Shown: piece after piece, positions 3,151 through 38,065 of the stretch
Layout: every line of letters starts with the position of its first letter
Position numbering within the stretch: the stretch's first letter is position 1
Source: Burkholderiales bacterium
Lineage (GTDB): Bacteria; Pseudomonadota; Gammaproteobacteria; Burkholderiales; Burkholderiaceae_C
Length of the DNA: 45,512 nt
NCBI GenBank assembly: GCA_031427315.1
Contig: JANPNF010000263.1
Coordinates: 1-45,512, forward strand
Reading direction: 5' to 3'
Translations under genes and position numbers: made by a program
The notes under the pieces: model-generated
What the model was told of the DNA's origin: nothing
Databases searched by the model: none
The model's input: the letters and a program-made list of their open reading frames with translations, nothing else

Positions 3151-3289
3151 GCATCAGGCTGGTGATGCGGCGTGTGGATGAGGCCCGCAAGGCAAATGCT
3201 TTGCGACCGCAACCGACCGGCAATCACCTTTCTTTTGTGGGTTGCCGGCTTCGACTTGACGCCGCAACCCCACCTGTGCCCCAATCCGC

Positions 3290-5373
<2,084 letters not shown>

Positions 5374-14924: not shown

Positions 14925-14982
14925 TAATACATGGTGCGAGAGTGGCATCTGCATTAGCAGCGCCGCTTGATCTGCAAGACAG

Positions 14983-15080
14983 CTAGGGTTCCGTGCCCGG
15001 CCCTGTGCCGGGTGGACTGGTCCGAGAGCGGTCGGCCGCAATGCATCGCGGTTCCACGGAGGGACAAAAGCCCGGGAGGA
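14983..15080 (+). promoter_or_regulatory. Guanidine-I riboswitch (ykkC-yxkD motif), copy 1
   Basis: CTAGGGTTCCG ... CTGGTCCGAGAG ... CCACGGAGGGACAAAAGCCCGGGAGG reproduces the invariant ykkC blocks. It is followed by the classical guanidine regulon genes. Confidence 0.9.
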
Positions 15081-18367: not shown

Positions 18368-18462
18368 GGCAACGTTGCCCTTAGGCCACGCCACGCCGCG
18401 CCGGACGACCGGAGTGTGCATCCGATGAGCGCAGGACGACCTGCTTTGCCGCTGAGCCCGCC

Positions 18463-24004: not shown

Positions 24005-24069
24005 TGGACGTGTGGGCAGGTGGAGCGAGTTCGCAGAGTCAAACCGTGCACTCCTCACACTCAGGGTCA

Positions 24070-24182
24070 CTAGGGTTCCGATTGGCAGTAATGCCGGTGC
24101 TGGTCCGAGAGTGCCCCGGCTTCGAAGGCTGCCGTGACAACGGCCGCGTCGAGGCTCCACGGAGGGATAAAAGCCCGGGAGA
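24070..24182 (+). promoter_or_regulatory. Guanidine-I riboswitch (ykkC-yxkD motif), copy 2
   Basis: CTAGGGTTCCG ... CTGGTCCGAGAG ... CCACGGAGGGATAAAAGCCCGGGAGA. Downstream, TCTCC (24203-24207) can pair with the aptamer-closing GGAGA (24178-24182), and a T-rich run lies at 24216-24223. Confidence 0.9.
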
Positions 24183-24239
24183 TTGACGCATCGAACACGT
24201 CTTCTCCTGCGCCCGTTTCTTTTACCTGGAGCTCTCGAC

Positions 24240-30294: not shown

Positions 30295-31097
30295 CACAGG
30301 TACGCAAACTCACGCCGCTGCTGACAGCCACGCATCGGTACGACAAATCGATCTCGACCTGGCAGCGCGGGCGCGGTCAGCAAATCGAGGCGCCGATCCT
30401 CGCCTACCTGATCGAGACTGCGAACGGCCGCATCCTGTACGACGTGGGCTGCGACCACGCGAAGATTGCTGATCCGGTTGCCCGCAATCGCCACTACAAC
30501 CCGGCGACCTTCGAGTTTGGCGCGCCCGACATGCGCGAGGAGCAGCGCCTTCCGCGCCATCTGGCGCGGCTCGGCCTGACGCCGGCCGATGTCGACGTGA
30601 TCTTCATCGGCCACCTGCATTTCGACCACGCCGGCGGGTTGCGCGAGCTGCGCCGCTGCGGCTGTGGTGCCGAAATCCATGTGCAGCGTGACGAGATGGA
30701 AGTCGCACTCAGCGGCGCCGACCCGGCGGTGTTCGCCGACGACCTGATCGACGACGTTGGCGCGCCGCTGCAGTTCAGGCTGCAGTCGGGCGAGTACAGC
30801 GTGCTGCCCGGCGTGCAGGCGGTGGCAACGCCTGGCCACACGGTCGGCCACATGTCGATGTGGATCGAGATGCCGAAAGGCCCACCGGTCCTGCTGGCCG
30901 GTGATGCGGCCGATCTGCAGGAAAACATCGACGACGAGGTTGCGCCTGGAACACTGTGGCAGGGCAGCGAGGCGCAGGCCATCGCCAGCATCCGCAAGTT
31001 GAAGGCGCTGGCCGCCGACACCGGCGCCTGGCTGTGGCCGAACCACGATTTCGCGTTCTACCGCTCGCTGCCGGCGTTTCCGCAGTTTGTGGAATGA
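30291..31097 (+). CDS. Metallo-beta-lactamase-fold hydrolase (lactonase-like)
   Basis: HLHFDHAGG (HxHxDH), TPGHTVGH, LLAGD. AAGGAG Shine-Dalgarno and an ATGA overlap with the upstream gene. Confidence 0.82.
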   Translation: MTQVRKLTPLLTATHRYDKSISTWQRGRGQQIEAPILAYLIETANGRILYDVGCDHAKIADPVARNRHYNPATFEFGAPDMREEQRLPRHLARLGLTPADVDVIFIGHLHFDHAGGLRELRRCGCGAEIHVQRDEMEVALSGADPAVFADDLIDDVGAPLQFRLQSGEYSVLPGVQAVATPGHTVGHMSMWIEMPKGPPVLLAGDAADLQENIDDEVAPGTLWQGSEAQAIASIRKLKALAADTGAWLWPNHDFAFYRSLPAFPQFVE

Positions 31098-31897
31098 CCG
31101 TGGGCGACACCGTTCCCGACGTCCCCGAGCGCTACCGCGGGGTGTGGCGGCGCACGCTGCTCGAAACGCCGAATCACCGTGACACCACAACCTGGGTGCA
31201 CTGGCTGCAGACCACGCGCTGGCACGCCGACCTGCGCGTGCCCGCCGCAGCGGAGGCGGGGCGGTCGGCAATCGCGCTCGATGCAATGGGCCCGGCGCAG
31301 CACCTCGCGCTGGCGCAGCAGCAAGGCTTTTTCGGCCGCACCGAGGTTCAGTCGCAGGGGCCGCGCGACATATGCACCTGGCACCGCCGACTCGACCTGC
31401 AGCCGCCAGGGCTGACGCCCGATGCCGGCTGGATGGCCTTCGACGGTGATGACCGCGTCATCGAAACCGGTGTGCACGGCGTGTACCGCGAGGTGTGGGA
31501 ACGCCTACCCGGCTCGACGGGGCGCACGCTGGTGCTGGCCGACACGGCTGCGCCGCCGGGTGACGACGCTGAAGCGACCGCGACAGCACGCGCCTACCTG
31601 CTGCTCGCCGGTGACTGGTTGATGCGCGTGCGACCGCGGCGGGTCGGCTGGCCACCAGGCACGGCCCCGGGCGACACGCTGGGCAGGCTGCTCGCCCTGC
31701 ATCCGGCCTCGGCCACGGCGCTGCTCGACTTCGAGATTTCGTTTGGTCGGCTGCGCAACGGTGCGTGGCACATCGAGCGATCCAGCCTGCCCGAGCTTGA
31801 AGGCCGCACCGAAGCGATGCACTGGCAGCCACTCGATGACCTGCGCACCGAGGTGCGCTGTGACTTGAGCACCTCCGTTTGGTGCATGCTGGACTGA
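31094..31897 (+). CDS. Hypothetical protein, last gene of the riboswitch-2 operon
   Basis: 267 aa, with an ATGA overlap with the MBL gene and codon usage like its neighbours. I recognise no motif in it. Confidence 0.6.
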   Translation: MTVGDTVPDVPERYRGVWRRTLLETPNHRDTTTWVHWLQTTRWHADLRVPAAAEAGRSAIALDAMGPAQHLALAQQQGFFGRTEVQSQGPRDICTWHRRLDLQPPGLTPDAGWMAFDGDDRVIETGVHGVYREVWERLPGSTGRTLVLADTAAPPGDDAEATATARAYLLLAGDWLMRVRPRRVGWPPGTAPGDTLGRLLALHPASATALLDFEISFGRLRNGAWHIERSSLPELEGRTEAMHWQPLDDLRTEVRCDLSTSVWCMLD

Positions 31898-31914: not shown

Positions 31915-31930
31915 AGGCACGCCTGTTGCT
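31915..31930 (+). promoter_or_regulatory. Sigma-54 (RpoN) type -24/-12 promoter
   Basis: AGGCAC-GCCTG-TTGCT, intergenic. The predicted transcription start falls inside the palindromic operator that follows. Confidence 0.5.
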
Positions 31931-31937
31931 TCTAGTG

Positions 31938-31965
31938 GTATTACGAATCAAGTAATTCGTAATAC
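31938..31965 (+). promoter_or_regulatory. Perfect palindromic operator with NikR-type geometry
   Basis: GTATTACGAAT-caagta-ATTCGTAATAC has perfect 11-bp arms and can be read as GTATTA-N16-TAATAC (the E. coli NikR box is GTATGA-N16-TCATAC). It is an AT-rich island in GC-rich DNA. TAATAC is repeated directly at 31966-31971. Confidence 0.6.
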
Positions 31966-32035
31966 TAATACGTGCATCGATCGCCTCACGCCGGAATCGA
32001 TTCCATTGCCAAGAAGGCCTCCGCCGTCACCCACC

Positions 32036-33001
32036 ATGAGGGCGCTCCAAATGCTCTTGCCACGCCGGCGACTGATGCCCCGCACCCACTGGTTGCTGGG
32101 CCTGGGGTCGTTCATCGTGCCGCTGCTGATCTGGTGTGTGGTCAGTTACGTGCCCGGCGTCTGGCATCCGCAGATGCGCATCGTCGATGCGGGCGATGTC
32201 GACTACTTCCAGCCGGGCATGCGCGCAGATGTCGACCAGTTCGACAGCGAGGTTCAGGGCCTGCGCGCGAAGGGTGGCCGCGTGCCCATCGGCGTGCTGT
32301 CGAACCCGATCTACCTGCCGGCGCCGCACGAGGTGGCGATCGCTTTCGTGCGCGCGTTCTCGAACACGCCGAAGCAGACCGGCGGCAAGGGCATCCTCGA
32401 CAGCATGGGCGACAGCATCCGGCTGATCGTCTTCGGCTTCCTGCTGTCATCGGTGATTGCGGTGCCGCTGGGCATCGTCTGCGGCACGTATTCAGCGCTG
32501 TCGCGGCTCAACGAGCCCTTCGTCGAGTTCTTCCGCTACCTGCCGGCACCGGCGTTCGGCGCGCTGGCCGTTGCGGTGCTCGGCATCTACGAAGGCCCGA
32601 AGGTGGCGATCATCTTCATCGGCACCTTTTTCCAGCAGGTGCTGGTGGTGGCCAACACCGCGCGCAAGCTCGATTACGCGCTGCTCGAAGCGGCGCTGAC
32701 GTTGGGCACCAAACCCCTGAAGCTGCTGACGCATGTGGTGGTGCCCGGCATCCTGCCCAACCTTTACCGCGACCAGCGCATCCTGCTGGGCTGGGCCTGG
32801 ACGTATCTGGTCGTGGCCGAGCTGATCGGCACCAGCTCGGGCATCACGCTGTTTATCACGCAACAGGCGCGCTTCCAGAATTTCGATGACGTCTACGCCG
32901 CGATCCTGATGATCGGCGTGATCGGCTTCGGCTCCGACCTGCTGCTGGCGCGGCTAGAGCGGGTGCTGTTCCCGTGGGACCGCGGCGCGCTGACCGACTG
33001 A
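32036..33001 (+). CDS. ABC transporter permease (NitT/TauT family), paralog of 15142..16002
   Basis: [24 protein letters not shown]...LGTKP matches the equivalent block of the first permease. Alternative starts are at 32051 (GAGGG Shine-Dalgarno) and 32072. Confidence 0.85.
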
Positions 33002-33003
33002 CC

Positions 33004-33912
33004 ATGCAGAACCCCGCCGACATTCCGTCGTACCTGACGCAATCGCAGCCGGTGCGCGAGCGCTTCGACCGCCTGAAGCAGCGCAAGGTGATCCTCGACG
33101 TGCAGCAGCTCGGCAAGCGCTTCAGCACCGGGCAGGGCGAGGTCGTGGCGCTGAGGGGCATCGACTTCAAGACCTACCGGCGCGAATTCGTCTGCATCAT
33201 CGGCCCGTCGGGCTGCGGAAAATCGACGCTGATCCGCATCCTGGCCGGACTGGAGACGCAGTCCGAGGGCCGTGTGCTGCTCGACGGCCAGGCGGTCTCC
33301 GGCCCGTGCCGCGACCGCGGCATGGTGTTCCAGGGCTACACGCTGTTCCCGTGGCTCAACGTCAAGCGCAATGTGATGTTCGGTCTGCGGATGAACGGCG
33401 CGAGTTACGGTCAGGCCGAACAGAACGCGATGCAGTGGCTAGATCTGGTGGGCCTGTCGAAATTTGCCGACGCCTACCCGCACCAACTCTCCGGCGGCAT
33501 GAAGCAGCGCGTGGCCATCGCGCGGGCCCTGGCCAACCAGCCACGCATCTTGTTGATGGATGAGCCGTTTGGCGCGCTCGACGCGCAGACGCGCGCCAAG
33601 ATGCAGTCGTACCTGCTGGAGATCTGGAAGAACATCGACATCACCATCGTGTTCATCACCCACGACCTCGACGAAGCGATCTTTCTGGCCGACCGCATCC
33701 TGGTGCTGAAGGCCCACCCGGGCGAGATGCAAGAGCTGATCGAGGTGCCGGTGCCGCGCCCGCGCAGCCCGGGGCAGGTCACCTCGCCGGAGTTCCGCGC
33801 GACCAAGGCGCGGCTCGAAGCGCTGATTCACACGCCGAGCGAGGCCACCGATGAAGACATCGTGCTGCCGCCGATCACCCGTTTGACCGACGTCAGCGAC
33901 AACGTGGAATGA
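33004..33912 (+). CDS. ABC transporter ATP-binding protein (NitT/TauT family)
   Basis: Walker [10 protein letters not shown], signature [15 protein letters not shown], Walker [12 protein letters not shown]. Confidence 0.9.
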
Positions 33913-33930: not shown

Positions 33931-34701
33931 ATGCAATGGTCTGAACTGACCTGGTCGGAAGTTCCGGACGCGCTCAAATCGGCGATGAGTGCCGCCATCC
34001 TGCCGGTCGGTGCCACCGAACAGCACGGTCCGCACATGGGCTGCGGCATGGACTTCGTGCTCGCCGACAAGCTCTGTCGCGAGGTCGCACAGCGCACCGG
34101 TGTGCCGATGCTGCCGACGCTGCCCTACGGCTGCTCGGTCGGCCACAGCCGGCGCTGGCCCGGCACGCTGGCGGTGCAGCCGATCACGCTGATCGAGCTG
34201 GTCAAGCAGATCGGCGACTGGGCCCACCACAGCGGTGTGCGGCGGCTGTTCATCGTCAACACCCACGTGACGAACGCCGCGCCGCTGCGCTGTGCGCTGG
34301 AAATGCTGCGCGCCGAACACGACGAGATGATGGTGTCGGTCATCAACTCGGCCACGATCAGCCCGCGGGTGCGCCAGTTTCATTTCGCCGACGGCGACGA
34401 CTGGCACGCCAACGACGCCGAGACCTCGCTGATGCTGGCGCTGGCACCGACCATGGTGCGCCCCGAGCGCCTCGGCCAGGCCGACGACATCGATCGCACC
34501 GGCAGCCTGGTGTTCTCGCACCCGGTCAACCGCACCAGCCTGAACGGCGTGACCGGTGCGCCCAGCCTGGCGGCTGCCGATAAGGGCCGTGAATGGTTCG
34601 GCTGGATGGTCGAGGACCTGAGCGAACTGATCACCCGCGGCCTGCACGAAGAACCGCCGCTGGCGCATTCCTATTTCTCCACACACCACCACGAAGGCTG
34701 A
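33931..34701 (+). CDS. Creatininase-family amidohydrolase (divergent second copy)
   Basis: [18 protein letters not shown] keeps the family metal motif, but NTHVTN replaces NGHYEN and the YGYKSQ substrate-side block is absent. GGAG lies 5 nt before the ATG. Confidence 0.8.
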
Positions 34702-34706
34702 ACCCC

Positions 34707-36068
34707 ATGCACGCATCCGAAGAAGTCCTGGCCGTCCGCGACCGCTTGAAGGGGCAAGGTGTCAAGTACTGCATCGGCGCCTATGTGGACATCCACGGCA
34801 TCCCGAAAGCCAAGGTGGTGCCGATCGACCACCTGCCTCAGATGGCTGCCGGCTCCGAGCGCTACACCGGCTATGCGCTCGACGGCCTGGGCCAGGCGCC
34901 AAGCGACGACGAGCTGTCGTCGGTGCCCGATCTGGGCCACATCATCCAGTTGCCGTGGGAGCCGAAGATCGCCTGGATGCCGGCTGACAACACCTTTCAA
35001 GGCCGGCCCTACCCGTTGAGCACCCGCGTTGCGCTGAAGAACGTGCTGGCGCAGGCCGCCGAGATGGGGCTGGGCATGAACCTCGGCATCGAGTGCGAAA
35101 TCTACCTGCTGAAGCAGGCAGCCGACGGTACGCTGCAGGTGCCGAACCCGGACGACAAGCTGGTCAAGCCCTGTTACGACGTGCGCGGCTTCGTCGACCA
35201 GTTCAGCTGGCTCGACAAGATGGCCACCGCGATCGACGGCCTGGGCTGGGATCTGTACTCGTTCGACCATGAAGACGGCAACGGCCAGTTCGAGTTCGAC
35301 TTCGCCTACAGCGACGCGCTGCGCACGTGCGACCGCCTGATCTTCTTCCGCTTCATGGCCAAGCACTATGCCAAGGAAGAAGGCCTGCTGGCGACGATGA
35401 TGCCCAAGCCCTTCGGCAACCGCACTGGCACCGGCGCGCATTTCAACATGTCGCTGTACGACCTGAAGACCGGGGCCAACCGCTTCGCCTGCGACCCGAA
35501 GGACGACCCGCGCGGGCTGGGCCTGACCACGATGGGCTACCAGTTCATCGCCGGCATCCTGAAGCACGGTCCGGCACTGTGCGCGGCCTTCGCGCCGACG
35601 GTCAATAGCTACAAGCGGCTGGTGCGCCAGGGCGCGATGAGCTACTTCACCTGGGCGCCGGTGTTCAACTCCTTCGGCTCGAACAACCGGACCAACTCGG
35701 TGCGCGTGCCGGCCGGCGGCGGCCGCTGCGAATCACGCAATGCCGACGGCGCGGTGAATCCGTACCTGGCGGCCACACTGGCTTTGGCCGCCGGCCTTGA
35801 AGGCATCCGCGAGAACCTCGACCCCGGCAAGCCGAACGAGGACAACCTGTACGCGATGTCGGAGGCCGAGCGCCGCGAGCGCGGCATCGCGTTCCTGCCG
35901 CAGACGCTGCACGAGGCGGTCGAGGCTTTCGCGGCCGACCCGCTGGTCGAGAAGACGTTGGGCACCGAGTTGCGCAATGAGTTCATCAAGTACAAGACCG
36001 AGGAGTGGAACGCCTACCACCTGACGGTGAGCCAGTGGGAGGTCGATCGCTACAGCTACATGTTCTGA
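34707..36068 (+). CDS. Glutamine-synthetase-family ATP-dependent ligase (GS-like, 453 aa)
   Basis: GS catalytic blocks are present: [48 protein letters not shown]. It starts 5 nt after the creatininase-family stop. Confidence 0.85.
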
Positions 36069-36184: not shown

Positions 36185-36661
36185 TCAGCGCTTCTTAGCG
36201 TGAGGCGGTGGCGATGAATGCAGCGGCGGGATCACCGCGGCCATCAATTGAAGGCGCGCTGTGATCACGCCTTTCAGTGACGTCATGGCATCGACAATGC
36301 CCTGCAGCTTCGGCGCCGGGCCCTGCACCAGGATCACTTCCATCATCTTGTCTTCGGTCAGGTGCACGTGCAGCGAGCTGATGACCTCGGCAATGTTGTC
36401 GTACTGCAGGTCGGACAGCCGCCGCTGCAGGCCGCGCGTGCCGCGGTCGTAGAACAAGGTGATAGTGCCCGCCATCACCTCGTCGCCGAGTTCACGCTTG
36501 TGTTCGACCAGCTGCTGGTTGACCATGTCGCTGATCGCCTGCGAGCGGCTTTCATAGCCGCGGCTGCTGGCCATCTCATCGAGTTCGAGCAGCAGGTCCG
36601 GGTTCATCGAGATGCTGATGCGCACGACGAAACCGTTGGACTTGACGCTCGATCGGGGCAC
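36185..36661 (-). CDS. NikR-family ribbon-helix-helix regulator with an altered metal site
   Basis: The ribbon-helix-helix part RISISMNPDLLLELDEMASSRGYESRSQAISDMV aligns with E. coli NikR [34 protein letters not shown]. The C-terminal ACT-like domain retains LHVH. The GTG start lies 9 nt after the binding-protein stop (alternative GTG at 36625). Confidence 0.8.
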   Translation of the reverse strand: MPRSSVKSNGFVVRISISMNPDLLLELDEMASSRGYESRSQAISDMVNQQLVEHKRELGDEVMAGTITLFYDRGTRGLQRRLSDLQYDNIAEVISSLHVHLTEDKMMEVILVQGPAPKLQGIVDAMTSLKGVITARLQLMAAVIPPLHSSPPPHAKKR

Positions 36662-36670
36662 GACCGGACC

Positions 36671-37660
36671 TTACTTGGGCAGGTACGACGCATCGATGTA
36701 GCTGTCGACATCCTGCGCTGCCTTGTAGACCCCGTTGGCCACATTGAAGTCGTCGGCCACCTTCGACGAGCCCGACAACGAGCCGAAGCCCGGCGCCTTG
36801 ACGAAGATCTTCTTGCTGTCCGCCAGCGTCAGTAGCTTCGTGCCCTTGAGCAGCGGCAGGTATTCGGCCGGCTTCAGACCGACGCGCGCCGACATGATCT
36901 TCAGCGCGTCGGGCTGCGTCTTCGGGTCGTTGATGTAGGCCACCACCTTGTCCCAGACCAGCACGACTTTCTTCCAGTCTTCCTTGCGCTTCGCCAGGCT
37001 GGTCGGGTTGACGCCAACGATGTCGTAGATCAGGCCGGGTTCTTCCGCGGAGGTGTAGAGCGGTTTCGCGCCGGGCGAGCCCTTCATCGCCTGACCCGAG
37101 ATCGGCTGCCAGGCGCCGATGGCCGAGATGTCTTTCGAAGCCAGAATCTGCGGCATCTCGTTGGTCTTGGCGTTGACCAGCGTGACATCGGCTTCCTTCA
37201 TGCCGGCCTTCTTCAGCCCGTTGAGCAGCAGCAGGTGCTCGACCAGCCCGAATTCAACCGCGACCTTCTTGCCCTTCAGGTCTTTCAGCGTCTTGATGCC
37301 TGGCTTGCCGACAATCATGTCGTTGCCGTTGGAGTAGTCGGTCAGCACGATCGCCACGCTTTTGCCGCCACCGGCACCTGTCACCAGTGCGTCGCCGTTG
37401 GTCATGCACACCGCGTCGATCTTGCCGGCGGTGAACGCGTCCAGCGAAGCCGAGTAGTCGAACCACTCCAGCTTCACGTCGACACCGGCGTCCTTGAAAA
37501 ACCCCTTGTCCTGCGCCACCTGCCAAGCAACCCAGCCTGGCCAGTCGCTGTAGCCGATCTTCAGCGGCTCGGCCGCCCGCGTGGGCAGCACGGTCAGCGA
37601 CAGCGCCGCCGGGATCAAGGACGTAAAGAGCCGGCGGCTCACGCGAAACATGGAAGTCAT
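36671..37660 (-). CDS. ABC transporter substrate-binding protein (NMT1/THI5-like), paralog of 24240..25292
   Basis: MTSMFRVSRRLFTSLIPAALSLTVLPTRAAEPLKIGYSDWPGW... has a twin-arginine-like SRRLF motif. A GGAA Shine-Dalgarno precedes the ATG at complement 37658-37660. The rest of the listed 519-aa ORF is an extension. Confidence 0.85.
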   Translation of the reverse strand: MTSMFRVSRRLFTSLIPAALSLTVLPTRAAEPLKIGYSDWPGWVAWQVAQDKGFFKDAGVDVKLEWFDYSASLDAFTAGKIDAVCMTNGDALVTGAGGGKSVAIVLTDYSNGNDMIVGKPGIKTLKDLKGKKVAVEFGLVEHLLLLNGLKKAGMKEADVTLVNAKTNEMPQILASKDISAIGAWQPISGQAMKGSPGAKPLYTSAEEPGLIYDIVGVNPTSLAKRKEDWKKVVLVWDKVVAYINDPKTQPDALKIMSARVGLKPAEYLPLLKGTKLLTLADSKKIFVKAPGFGSLSGSSKVADDFNVANGVYKAAQDVDSYIDASYLPK

Positions 37661-37677: not shown

Positions 37678-37705
37678 GTGTTACGGGGGCGTCTGTCGGT
37701 AATAC
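37678..37705 (-). promoter_or_regulatory. Second NikR-geometry operator
   Basis: GTGTTA-N16-TAATAC, with extended arms GTGTTAC / GTAATAC. It lies 18-45 nt upstream of the binding-protein start codon. Confidence 0.5.
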
Positions 37706-37774: not shown

Positions 37775-38065
37775 ATGATCGTTCGCATTGAAATTGACAC
37801 CCCGCCGGGCGGCCTGTTCGACTACCGGGTCACCGACGAAGGCGAGACGCTCTACACCGATGCTGAACTGCCGTCGCTTGCCGACGCGCTGGTCGCGGCG
37901 GTGGAAGGGCTGGCGCCTGAGGTCGTCGGAGCCGAGGTCTGGTTCCGCGGCGTGGTGTCGGGCACCTATCCGCTGCATGTCATTGCCGTCAACCACGCGC
38001 AGATCGCCACCCATGCGGCCAACACCACCGCGGCGATTTTCGAAGGTCTCGCGCGGCCCGACTGA
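37775..38065 (+). CDS. Small hypothetical protein (96 aa)
   Basis: AGGA lies 8 nt upstream of the ATG and codon bias is coding-like. It is divergent from the binding-protein operon. No motif recognised. Confidence 0.55.
   Translation: MIVRIEIDTPPGGLFDYRVTDEGETLYTDAELPSLADALVAAVEGLAPEVVGAEVWFRGVVSGTYPLHVIAVNHAQIATHAANTTAAIFEGLARPD

Follow-up and report, generated by a model that had tools for sequence, protein, structure and literature searches.

Sigma-54 promoters of a guanidine-linked importer appear to carry a NikR-class operator, paired with a NikR-like regulator whose sensor domain lacks the nickel site

The best described relatives of the inverted repeat discussed here are operators of the nickel regulator NikR. 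In Escherichia coli the operator of nikABCDE (2HZV; PMC7055735) overlaps a sigma-70 promoter, a position that implies repression, and the transporter operon ends with the regulator gene. The E. coli protein combines an RHH domain with a C-terminal tetramerisation and sensor domain, and it needs nickel on the ligands H76', H87, H89 and C95, which constitute the high-affinity site (PMC7055735). A second signal, GTGTTAC-[N13/14]-GTAACAC, including a GTaTTAC variant, was described for the delta-proteobacteria and contrasted with the enterobacterial signal GTATGAT-[N13/14]-ATCATAC (Rodionov et al. 2004, PMC545781). The published delta-class sites precede nickel transporters (nikMNQO etc.) and were assigned to a NikR with the full nickel site. 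NikR has so far been treated as a single-purpose nickel sensor, and in a preprint survey of 2026 the dominant NikR sequence cluster was assigned to nickel. For guanidine, a review of 2025 states that no receptors other than riboswitches are known and that regulatory proteins have yet to be found.

We have analysed a window of 45,512 nt (that is, the whole stretch of DNA, from a Burkholderiales bacterium); the runs that contain this stretch consist of metagenomic DNA only (sediment metagenome). At 31938-31965 the window reads GTATTACGAATCAAGTAATTCGTAATAC, which can be written as GTATTACGAAT-CAAGTA-ATTCGTAATAC and constitutes an 11-N6-11 inverted repeat without an assigned strand (box 1). The original prediction presented it as a perfect 28-bp palindrome, a slight overstatement: the 11-nt arms are exactly complementary, but the 6-nt centre CAAGTA is not palindromic. 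The remainder of that description agrees with the sequence. The repeat can be read as GTATTA-N16-TAATAC as well as GTATTAC-N14-GTAATAC, it has the spacing of the E. coli NikR box GTATGA-N16-TCATAC and deviates from it by one base per half-site, and it begins 8 nt past the -12 element (TTGC of aGGCACGcctgTTGCTt). The extra TAATAC that had been pointed out directly behind the repeat (31966-31971, plus strand) is indeed there, but it is not conserved, being missing from most of the aligned orthologous leaders, and is probably incidental. A chance origin of the repeat is excluded, because the full pattern, which occurs once in the window, was found in none of 100 shuffles, and because two sites of the form GTATTA-N16-TAATAC with at most two mismatches were found in the window versus an expectation of 0.03. 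The repeat coincides with a trough in GC content (0.50-0.55 locally versus 0.65-0.75 in the background).

A sigma-54 (-24/-12) element, aGGCACGcctgTTGCTt (31915-31931, plus strand), is predicted in front of the operon for permease, ATPase, hydrolase and ligase, and a second one, TGGCCTCAGTATTGCTT (37740-37724, minus strand), in front of the gene for the binding protein; both match TGGCAC-N5-TTGCW with the GG-N10-GC spacing. Transcription from sigma-54 promoters usually starts 11-12 nt past the GC of the -12 element, and box 1 should therefore extend from about -3 to +25 relative to the predicted start. Neither a sigma-70-like promoter nor an intrinsic terminator was predicted at box 1. A search with a relaxed pattern revealed a second copy of the repeat (box 2, 37678-37705, again without an assigned strand), which reads GTATTAC-N14-GTAACAC on the minus strand (GTGTTAC-N14-GTAATAC on the plus strand) and is located 17 nt 5' of the ATG of the binding-protein gene. 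The element TGGCCTCAGTATTGCTT lies 20 nt upstream of box 2, a layout that is repeated in L001, one of the closest relatives. Since box 2 and this element head the operon of the binding protein and the NikR-like regulator, the window holds two convergent transcription units, each with a promoter-plus-box of its own. About 30 nt upstream of the -24 element of the first promoter there is a GCACC-N7-GGTGC inverted repeat (31869-31886), which could be a candidate site for an NtrC-type activator, with a spacer two bases longer than the classical one.

The plus-strand operon encodes an ABC permease of the NitT/TauT type (32036-33001; the ATG at 32036 is in frame with the listed TTG at 32006), an ABC ATPase (32974-33912), a hydrolase of the creatininase family that scores under the creatininase equivalog cut-off (33931-34701) and a type III glutamine-synthetase-like (GS-III) ligase (34593-36068; TIGR03105, 640 bits). 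The limits given for the ligase are those of the open reading frame, and its true start is probably later than 34593, as the family match begins at residue 51. On the minus strand, the NikR-like regulator (36185-36661; 158 aa, RHH plus NikR_C according to Pfam) and a periplasmic binding protein, NMT1/SsuA-like and with a signal peptide (36671-37660, true ATG at 37660), converge on these four genes. The window also encodes a urea/guanidine carboxylase, an allophanate hydrolase, a DUF1989 protein, a true creatininase and a biuret-hydrolase-like isochorismatase, and a comparison with Rfam revealed riboswitches of three classes, Guanidine-I (two copies), Guanidine-II and TPP (one each); no known RNA family overlaps box 1. 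The neighbourhood around both operons is a guanidine island. The four riboswitches are located at 3288-3398, 14972-15080, 18397-18444 and 24059-24183; the TPP riboswitch precedes thiC, and the three guanidine riboswitches head neighbouring operons for an importer, a carboxylase and a hydrolase.

By its sequence, box 1 belongs to the published NikR class GTGTTAC-N13/14-GTAACAC. The half-sites of 6-7 bp, the overall length of 27-28 bp and the spacing of N13/14 or N16 that characterize NikR boxes are all found, and the pair GTATTAC/GTAATAC is one base away from the GTGTTAC/GTAACAC or the GTATGA/TCATAC class. In common with the delta-proteobacterial operators, the boxes are 28-bp inverted repeats with 7-bp half-sites and N14, situated in the promoter of a transporter operon beside a gene of the nikR family; the half-site GTATTAC is one base off, and box 2 has the exact GTGTTAC. 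With the nikABCDE operator box 1 shares the total length and, as said, the half-site spacing, and with the nikABCDE system as a whole the domain layout of the regulator, the presence of its gene at the end of the transporter operon and the location over a promoter. The reading as an operator with NikR geometry that had been proposed for the site is thereby supported: it matches the published signals, there is a second copy in the promoter of the regulator itself, and box and regulator gene co-occur in some 180 loci. We consider it about 80% probable, on the basis of these comparisons, that the repeat is the operator for the NikR-like RHH repressor encoded at 36185-36661, acting at the sigma-54 promoters of guanidine-linked uptake operons.

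The genes presumed to be controlled set these boxes apart from both described groups. The boxes are followed by a NitT/TauT importer, a creatininase-like hydrolase, a GS-III-like ligase, an allophanate hydrolase and a porin-like protein, and not by genes for nickel uptake or nickel-dependent enzymes. Unlike the delta-class sites, they belong to an importer that is accompanied by amide/amine enzymes, they are joined to a sigma-54 promoter with few exceptions, and they occur with a NikR-like protein that lacks the Cys ligand. As for E. coli, there the operator overlaps a sigma-70 promoter, whereas the promoters here are of the sigma-54 type, and the cargo of the importer is not nickel.

The regulator itself is a clear member of the NikR family. 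It contains the Pfam domains PF01402 (RHH) and PF08753 (NikR_C, ACT-like), it scores 116 bits against the NCBIfam NikR equivalog NF003381 (cut-off 105) and it aligns without gaps to NikR of Pyrococcus horikoshii (PDB 2bj1, E = 9e-28). Its residues R14, S16 and S18 correspond to R5, S7 and S9 of the latter protein, which are the DNA-reading residues of the beta-strand. We have retrieved 80 genome loci with an alignment of the regulator and ten relatives, and the three residues are nearly invariant among them, with substitutions in two loci, at position 16 in the one and at position 18 in the other. The nickel site presents a different picture. The four ligands of E. coli NikR are represented in P. 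horikoshii NikR by H78, H89, H91 and C97 according to the alignment, and in the regulator by Y87, H98, H100 and M106. Two of the four ligands required in E. coli are thus replaced (H76 by Y87 and C95 by M106), and the high-affinity site is not present as such. Among the 80 orthologues the position of C95 is occupied by M, T, V, I, L or A and never by Cys (0/80), that of H76 varies between Y, F, H, C, S and A, and in 79 loci Gln takes the place of E30 in the second metal site; the HVH pair (H98, H100) is retained in most members. A complete HHHC set occurs in 71 of the best 150 representatives at 50% identity, and these are the more distant ones, whereas in the nearest 25 or so family representatives HHHC is absent throughout and the positions vary. 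Judged from these alignments, the regulator belongs to a large Cys-less branch of the NikR family, and since the Cys ligand is missing throughout the clade it is very probably not a nickel sensor. In the literature searched for a Cys-less NikR branch, for NikR-like proteins and NikR paralogues, or for a NikR linked to guanidine, creatininase, allophanate hydrolase or urea carboxylase, no description of this system was found.

The alternative that survives best is that box 1 is a genuine nickel-responsive site. Nickel-loaded NikR, either the regulator or a canonical paralogue, would then shut off a nickel-independent route of nitrogen scavenging and act as a metal-sparing switch. This reading is in line with the class of the box, which was predicted for nickel regulons, and with the repression of a nickel-independent isozyme by NikR that was predicted in Desulfovibrio (PMC545781); moreover, the regulator scores above the equivalog cut-off and its HVH pair is mostly kept. 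It is nevertheless difficult to reconcile with a metal site in which the Cys is absent from all 80 orthologues, the position of H76 is variable and E30 has become Gln, or with the fact that it is the distant representatives, and not the nearest, that keep HHHC. In addition, genes for a nickel transporter, a urease or a hydrogenase were encountered neither in the window nor near the operon in the loci examined. We therefore consider a nickel-responsive site unlikely. A different NikR paralogue may nonetheless be the protein that binds the boxes.

The relation between box and regulator appears very general. The 80 loci include Thiobacillus, Sulfuriferula, Gallionella, Sideroxydans, Aquabacterium, Methylovorus, Methylobacillus, Hyphomicrobium, Parvibaculum, Mangrovitalea, Spongiibacteraceae and others, and a comparison by tblastn revealed one conserved operon that encodes the binding protein, permease, ATPase, creatininase-like, GS-III-like and NikR-like proteins. 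Some variants are shorter and lack both enzymes, and others have an allophanate hydrolase instead. A search with the creatininase-like protein matched only relatives of at least 75% identity. The N14 box was found just 5' of the binding-protein gene in 64 of the 66 usable upstream regions, and the two exceptions concern a truncated contig and a locus in which the box lies further upstream (L058). A GG-N10-GC sigma-54 element, with the GC of the -12 element 4-20 nt before the box, is present at 63 of the 65 box-aligned sites, the commonest distances being 14, 13, 8 and 4 nt, and in the orthologous loci a ribosome binding site and a start codon follow some 15-60 nt past the box. The split and convergent layout of the window recurs in its closest relatives (L001-L003); in L003, the equivalent of box 1 is located behind TGGCACGGGCGTTGCTT and before the permease gene. 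More generally, in the relatives with a split operon (L003, L020 and those of the L104/L166/L168/L184 type) each half has a separate box. In L020 there are even three promoter-box units, which precede the binding protein, the permease and a porin-like outer-membrane protein of the Gcw_chp family, respectively. The last of these (unit and gene at L020:17980-18891) is likely an extra member of the regulon and possibly provides an entry route through the outer membrane.

The variants in which an allophanate hydrolase replaces the creatininase-like/GS-like pair (L052:6209-8065 and L020:15896-17821) deserve separate mention. As the hydrolase stands in for the pair, they point to an importer substrate that yields allophanate, i.e. 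a compound of the urea, biuret or guanidine type.

The same association emerged when the search was started from the DNA. Metagenome contigs were scanned for TGGCAY-N6-TGC-N{4,22}-TATTAC-N14-GTAATA, a pattern that holds no protein information, and at least 119 stretches matched this promoter-plus-box. Among the matches listed, the first downstream gene encodes the binding protein in 83 cases, the permease in 20 and the NikR-like protein in two, while four matches are truncated and ten are followed by other genes, several of these ten without the flanking G/A. The transporter system (binding protein, permease or regulator) is thus found downstream in 105 of the 115 untruncated cases among the matches listed, and a NikR-like gene is present on 13 of the 15 associated contigs listed that extend at least 7.5 kb downstream. 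The scan also reached a distant clade (L104, L166, L168 and L184) in which the NikR-like protein is 43-45% identical, and in which box, permease and ATPase converge with NikR-like protein, allophanate hydrolase and binding protein. Box and regulator thus go together whether the search is started from the protein or from the DNA, and about 180 independent loci combine box, predicted sigma-54 promoter and NikR-like gene. On two near-identical contigs (L130 and L197) with box, importer, hydrolase and ligase, no NikR-like gene is seen in the 6-9 kb that follow; perhaps the regulator gene lies elsewhere, or perhaps it was lost.

The collected boxes also allow a distinction to be made between a site that acts as DNA and one that acts as RNA. 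A comparison of 61 distinct boxes yielded the consensus [G/A]TATTAC-N14-GTAATA[C/A/T], in which TATTAC (positions 2-7) and GTAATA (positions 22-27) show little or no variation. At position 1, 45 boxes have G and 16 have A; at position 28, C is found in 42, A in 10 and T in 9. Between the half-sites (positions 8-21) the sequence is rich in A/T and shows a weak preference for GAAT...(A/T)TTC. The core pattern matched 61 times in 1.30 Mb of loci, in all cases at promoters of the system, versus 0-1 times in 20 shuffles. The conserved unit is the pair of 7-nt half-sites with N14 spacing and not the 11-nt arms; the arms of box 1 are a near-ideal version of that 7-nt core.

Could the repeat, instead, function as a hairpin in the 5' leader of the mRNA, as a stabiliser, an attenuator or a translational element? 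The 11-bp stem of the window does fold well and dominates the centroid structure (-11.8 kcal/mol). However, what is conserved is the sequence of the 7-nt arms only. Positions 1 and 28 fail to pair in 23 of the 61 boxes, without compensation, positions 8-21 pair no better than expected by chance, and no compensatory change was observed in the arms of any of the 61 boxes. Moreover, in several loci the box starts 4 nt after the -12 element, so that its left arm falls before the start site and part of the box would not be transcribed, and in L168 the whole box is located upstream of the promoter. A U-tract or terminator following the repeat was not found. Given invariant half-sites and uncompensated changes, the evidence points to a protein-binding site on the DNA, and the hairpin, which is not conserved among the boxes, is very improbable and was rejected for its lack of covariation and for the position of the box in these loci.

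That another protein (a sigma-54 activator, IHF or an unrelated global regulator) binds the box, with the NikR-like gene as a passenger, is equally improbable, considering that this gene is the sole regulator gene that travels with the box, that 7-bp half-sites two turns apart represent the architecture of NikR, that activator sites are normally located far upstream and not over +1, and that no gene for a sigma-54 activator (bEBP) was found within the window.

If the repeat is indeed the operator of the NikR-like protein, each of its half-sites (TATTAC and GTAATA) would be occupied by one RHH dimer of a tetramer. The centres of the half-sites are 21 bp apart, which amounts to two helical turns as in the E. 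coli NikR-operator complex. As box 1 follows the -12 element at 8 nt and covers approximately -3 to +25, a tetramer bound there would be expected to block either the formation of the open complex by sigma-54 RNA polymerase or the escape from the promoter. Box 2 would mediate an equal block at the operon of the regulator itself, in other words negative autoregulation. Both operons would then be switched on only if a sigma-54 activator is active, presumably at nitrogen limitation, and the repressor has left the DNA. Promoters may differ in the way in which the box acts, considering that the distance between the -12 element and the box differs among the loci and that the box in L168 lies upstream of its promoter. 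NikR of Helicobacter pylori acts as a repressor of nixA from a comparable position and as an activator of ureA when bound upstream; the box that precedes the promoter in L168 therefore need not work as the others do.

The effector of such a repressor would probably be a small nitrogen metabolite of the guanidine-linked pathway, and not nickel. To our knowledge, all characterised NikRs bind DNA in the liganded state, and the simplest guess on grounds of homology is therefore a ligand-activated repressor that would keep the import of its own cargo, or else of a downstream product, in check. By analogy, the imported compound could be the co-repressor that restricts its own uptake. A repressor that is released by an inducer would be equally compatible with the data.

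A link with guanidine was found outside the window as well. Guanidine-I or -II riboswitches were identified with Rfam in the fetched flanks of L020, L029, L058 (two), L034, L011, L088, L135, L041, L038, L120, L168 and L128, and with a calibrated regular expression Guanidine-I was detected in 21 loci out of 199, in some ten of which it is transcribed divergently from the box promoter. The genes under control of these riboswitches are of the same kinds, i.e. NitT/TauT importers, DUF1989/CgdA-type genes and allophanate hydrolase neighbours, and the operons that they control are found next to the box, in tandem with it or in divergent orientation. For instance, in L058 (a Methyloradius MAG) the region 3590-3760 holds a sigma-54 promoter, the box (3610-3637) and a Guanidine-I aptamer (3654-3760), followed by the operon. 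In L168 the box (179-206) precedes the sigma-54 element (212-228) by 5 nt; Guanidine-I (241-336) and a DUF1989/CgdA-type gene follow, so that the predicted regulon extends to the guanidine carboxylase pathway. Also, the MBL hydrolase and a 313-aa protein that are riboswitch-controlled in the window have homologues that are both part of a box-controlled operon in L071, and in L058 the homologue of the 313-aa protein lies inside such an operon and that of the MBL hydrolase upstream of the box. The system is part of guanidine-type nitrogen scavenging. The control region of L058 can be described as three stacked layers.

The two modes of control differ in nature: the box is a predicted protein/DNA switch at transcription initiation, whereas the guanidine riboswitch is an RNA aptamer in the leader. 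The two leaders in which both are arranged in tandem (L058 and L168) suggest that control is not simply duplicated. Since box and riboswitch can stand in series, the signal of the regulator is probably not simply redundant with free guanidine, or is read with the opposite sign. We put forward, tentatively and as somewhat doubtful, that the Cys-less NikR-like protein might be a small-molecule sensor of guanidine, or of a guanidine-derived intermediate of the hydrolase and ligase. It would then represent the first protein-based switch of guanidine metabolism, an RHH roadblock at sigma-54 promoters that is layered with guanidine riboswitches.

Taken by their sequences, operator and regulator support the notion of a NikR-class pair whose sensor domain has lost the nickel site and which has been redeployed at the sigma-54 promoters of an importer linked to guanidine. 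The predicted operator constitutes a precise and widely conserved DNA target of 28 bp, with invariant half-sites and adjoining sigma-54 promoters, and the matching Cys-less regulator is found in many chemolithotrophs and methylotrophs, in loci for guanidine-linked nitrogen scavenging. The existence of such regulators raises the question what the NikR fold senses in place of nickel, and it opens testable questions on the repression of a sigma-54 promoter by an RHH tetramer and on the signal to which the module of importer, hydrolase and ligase responds. In addition, the box provides a practical marker to locate the regulon in genomes.

Two further genes in the window lie next to the promoters discussed. 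The 313-aa protein (30956-31897, plus strand), for which there was no family match, is encoded by the last gene of a riboswitch-controlled operon, and its homologues are found inside or beside box-controlled operons in L058, L067, L071, L072 and L150. An ORF of 96 aa (37775-38065, plus strand), without a match in Pfam or NCBIfam, is divergent from the promoter of the binding protein and is 97% conserved in L001.
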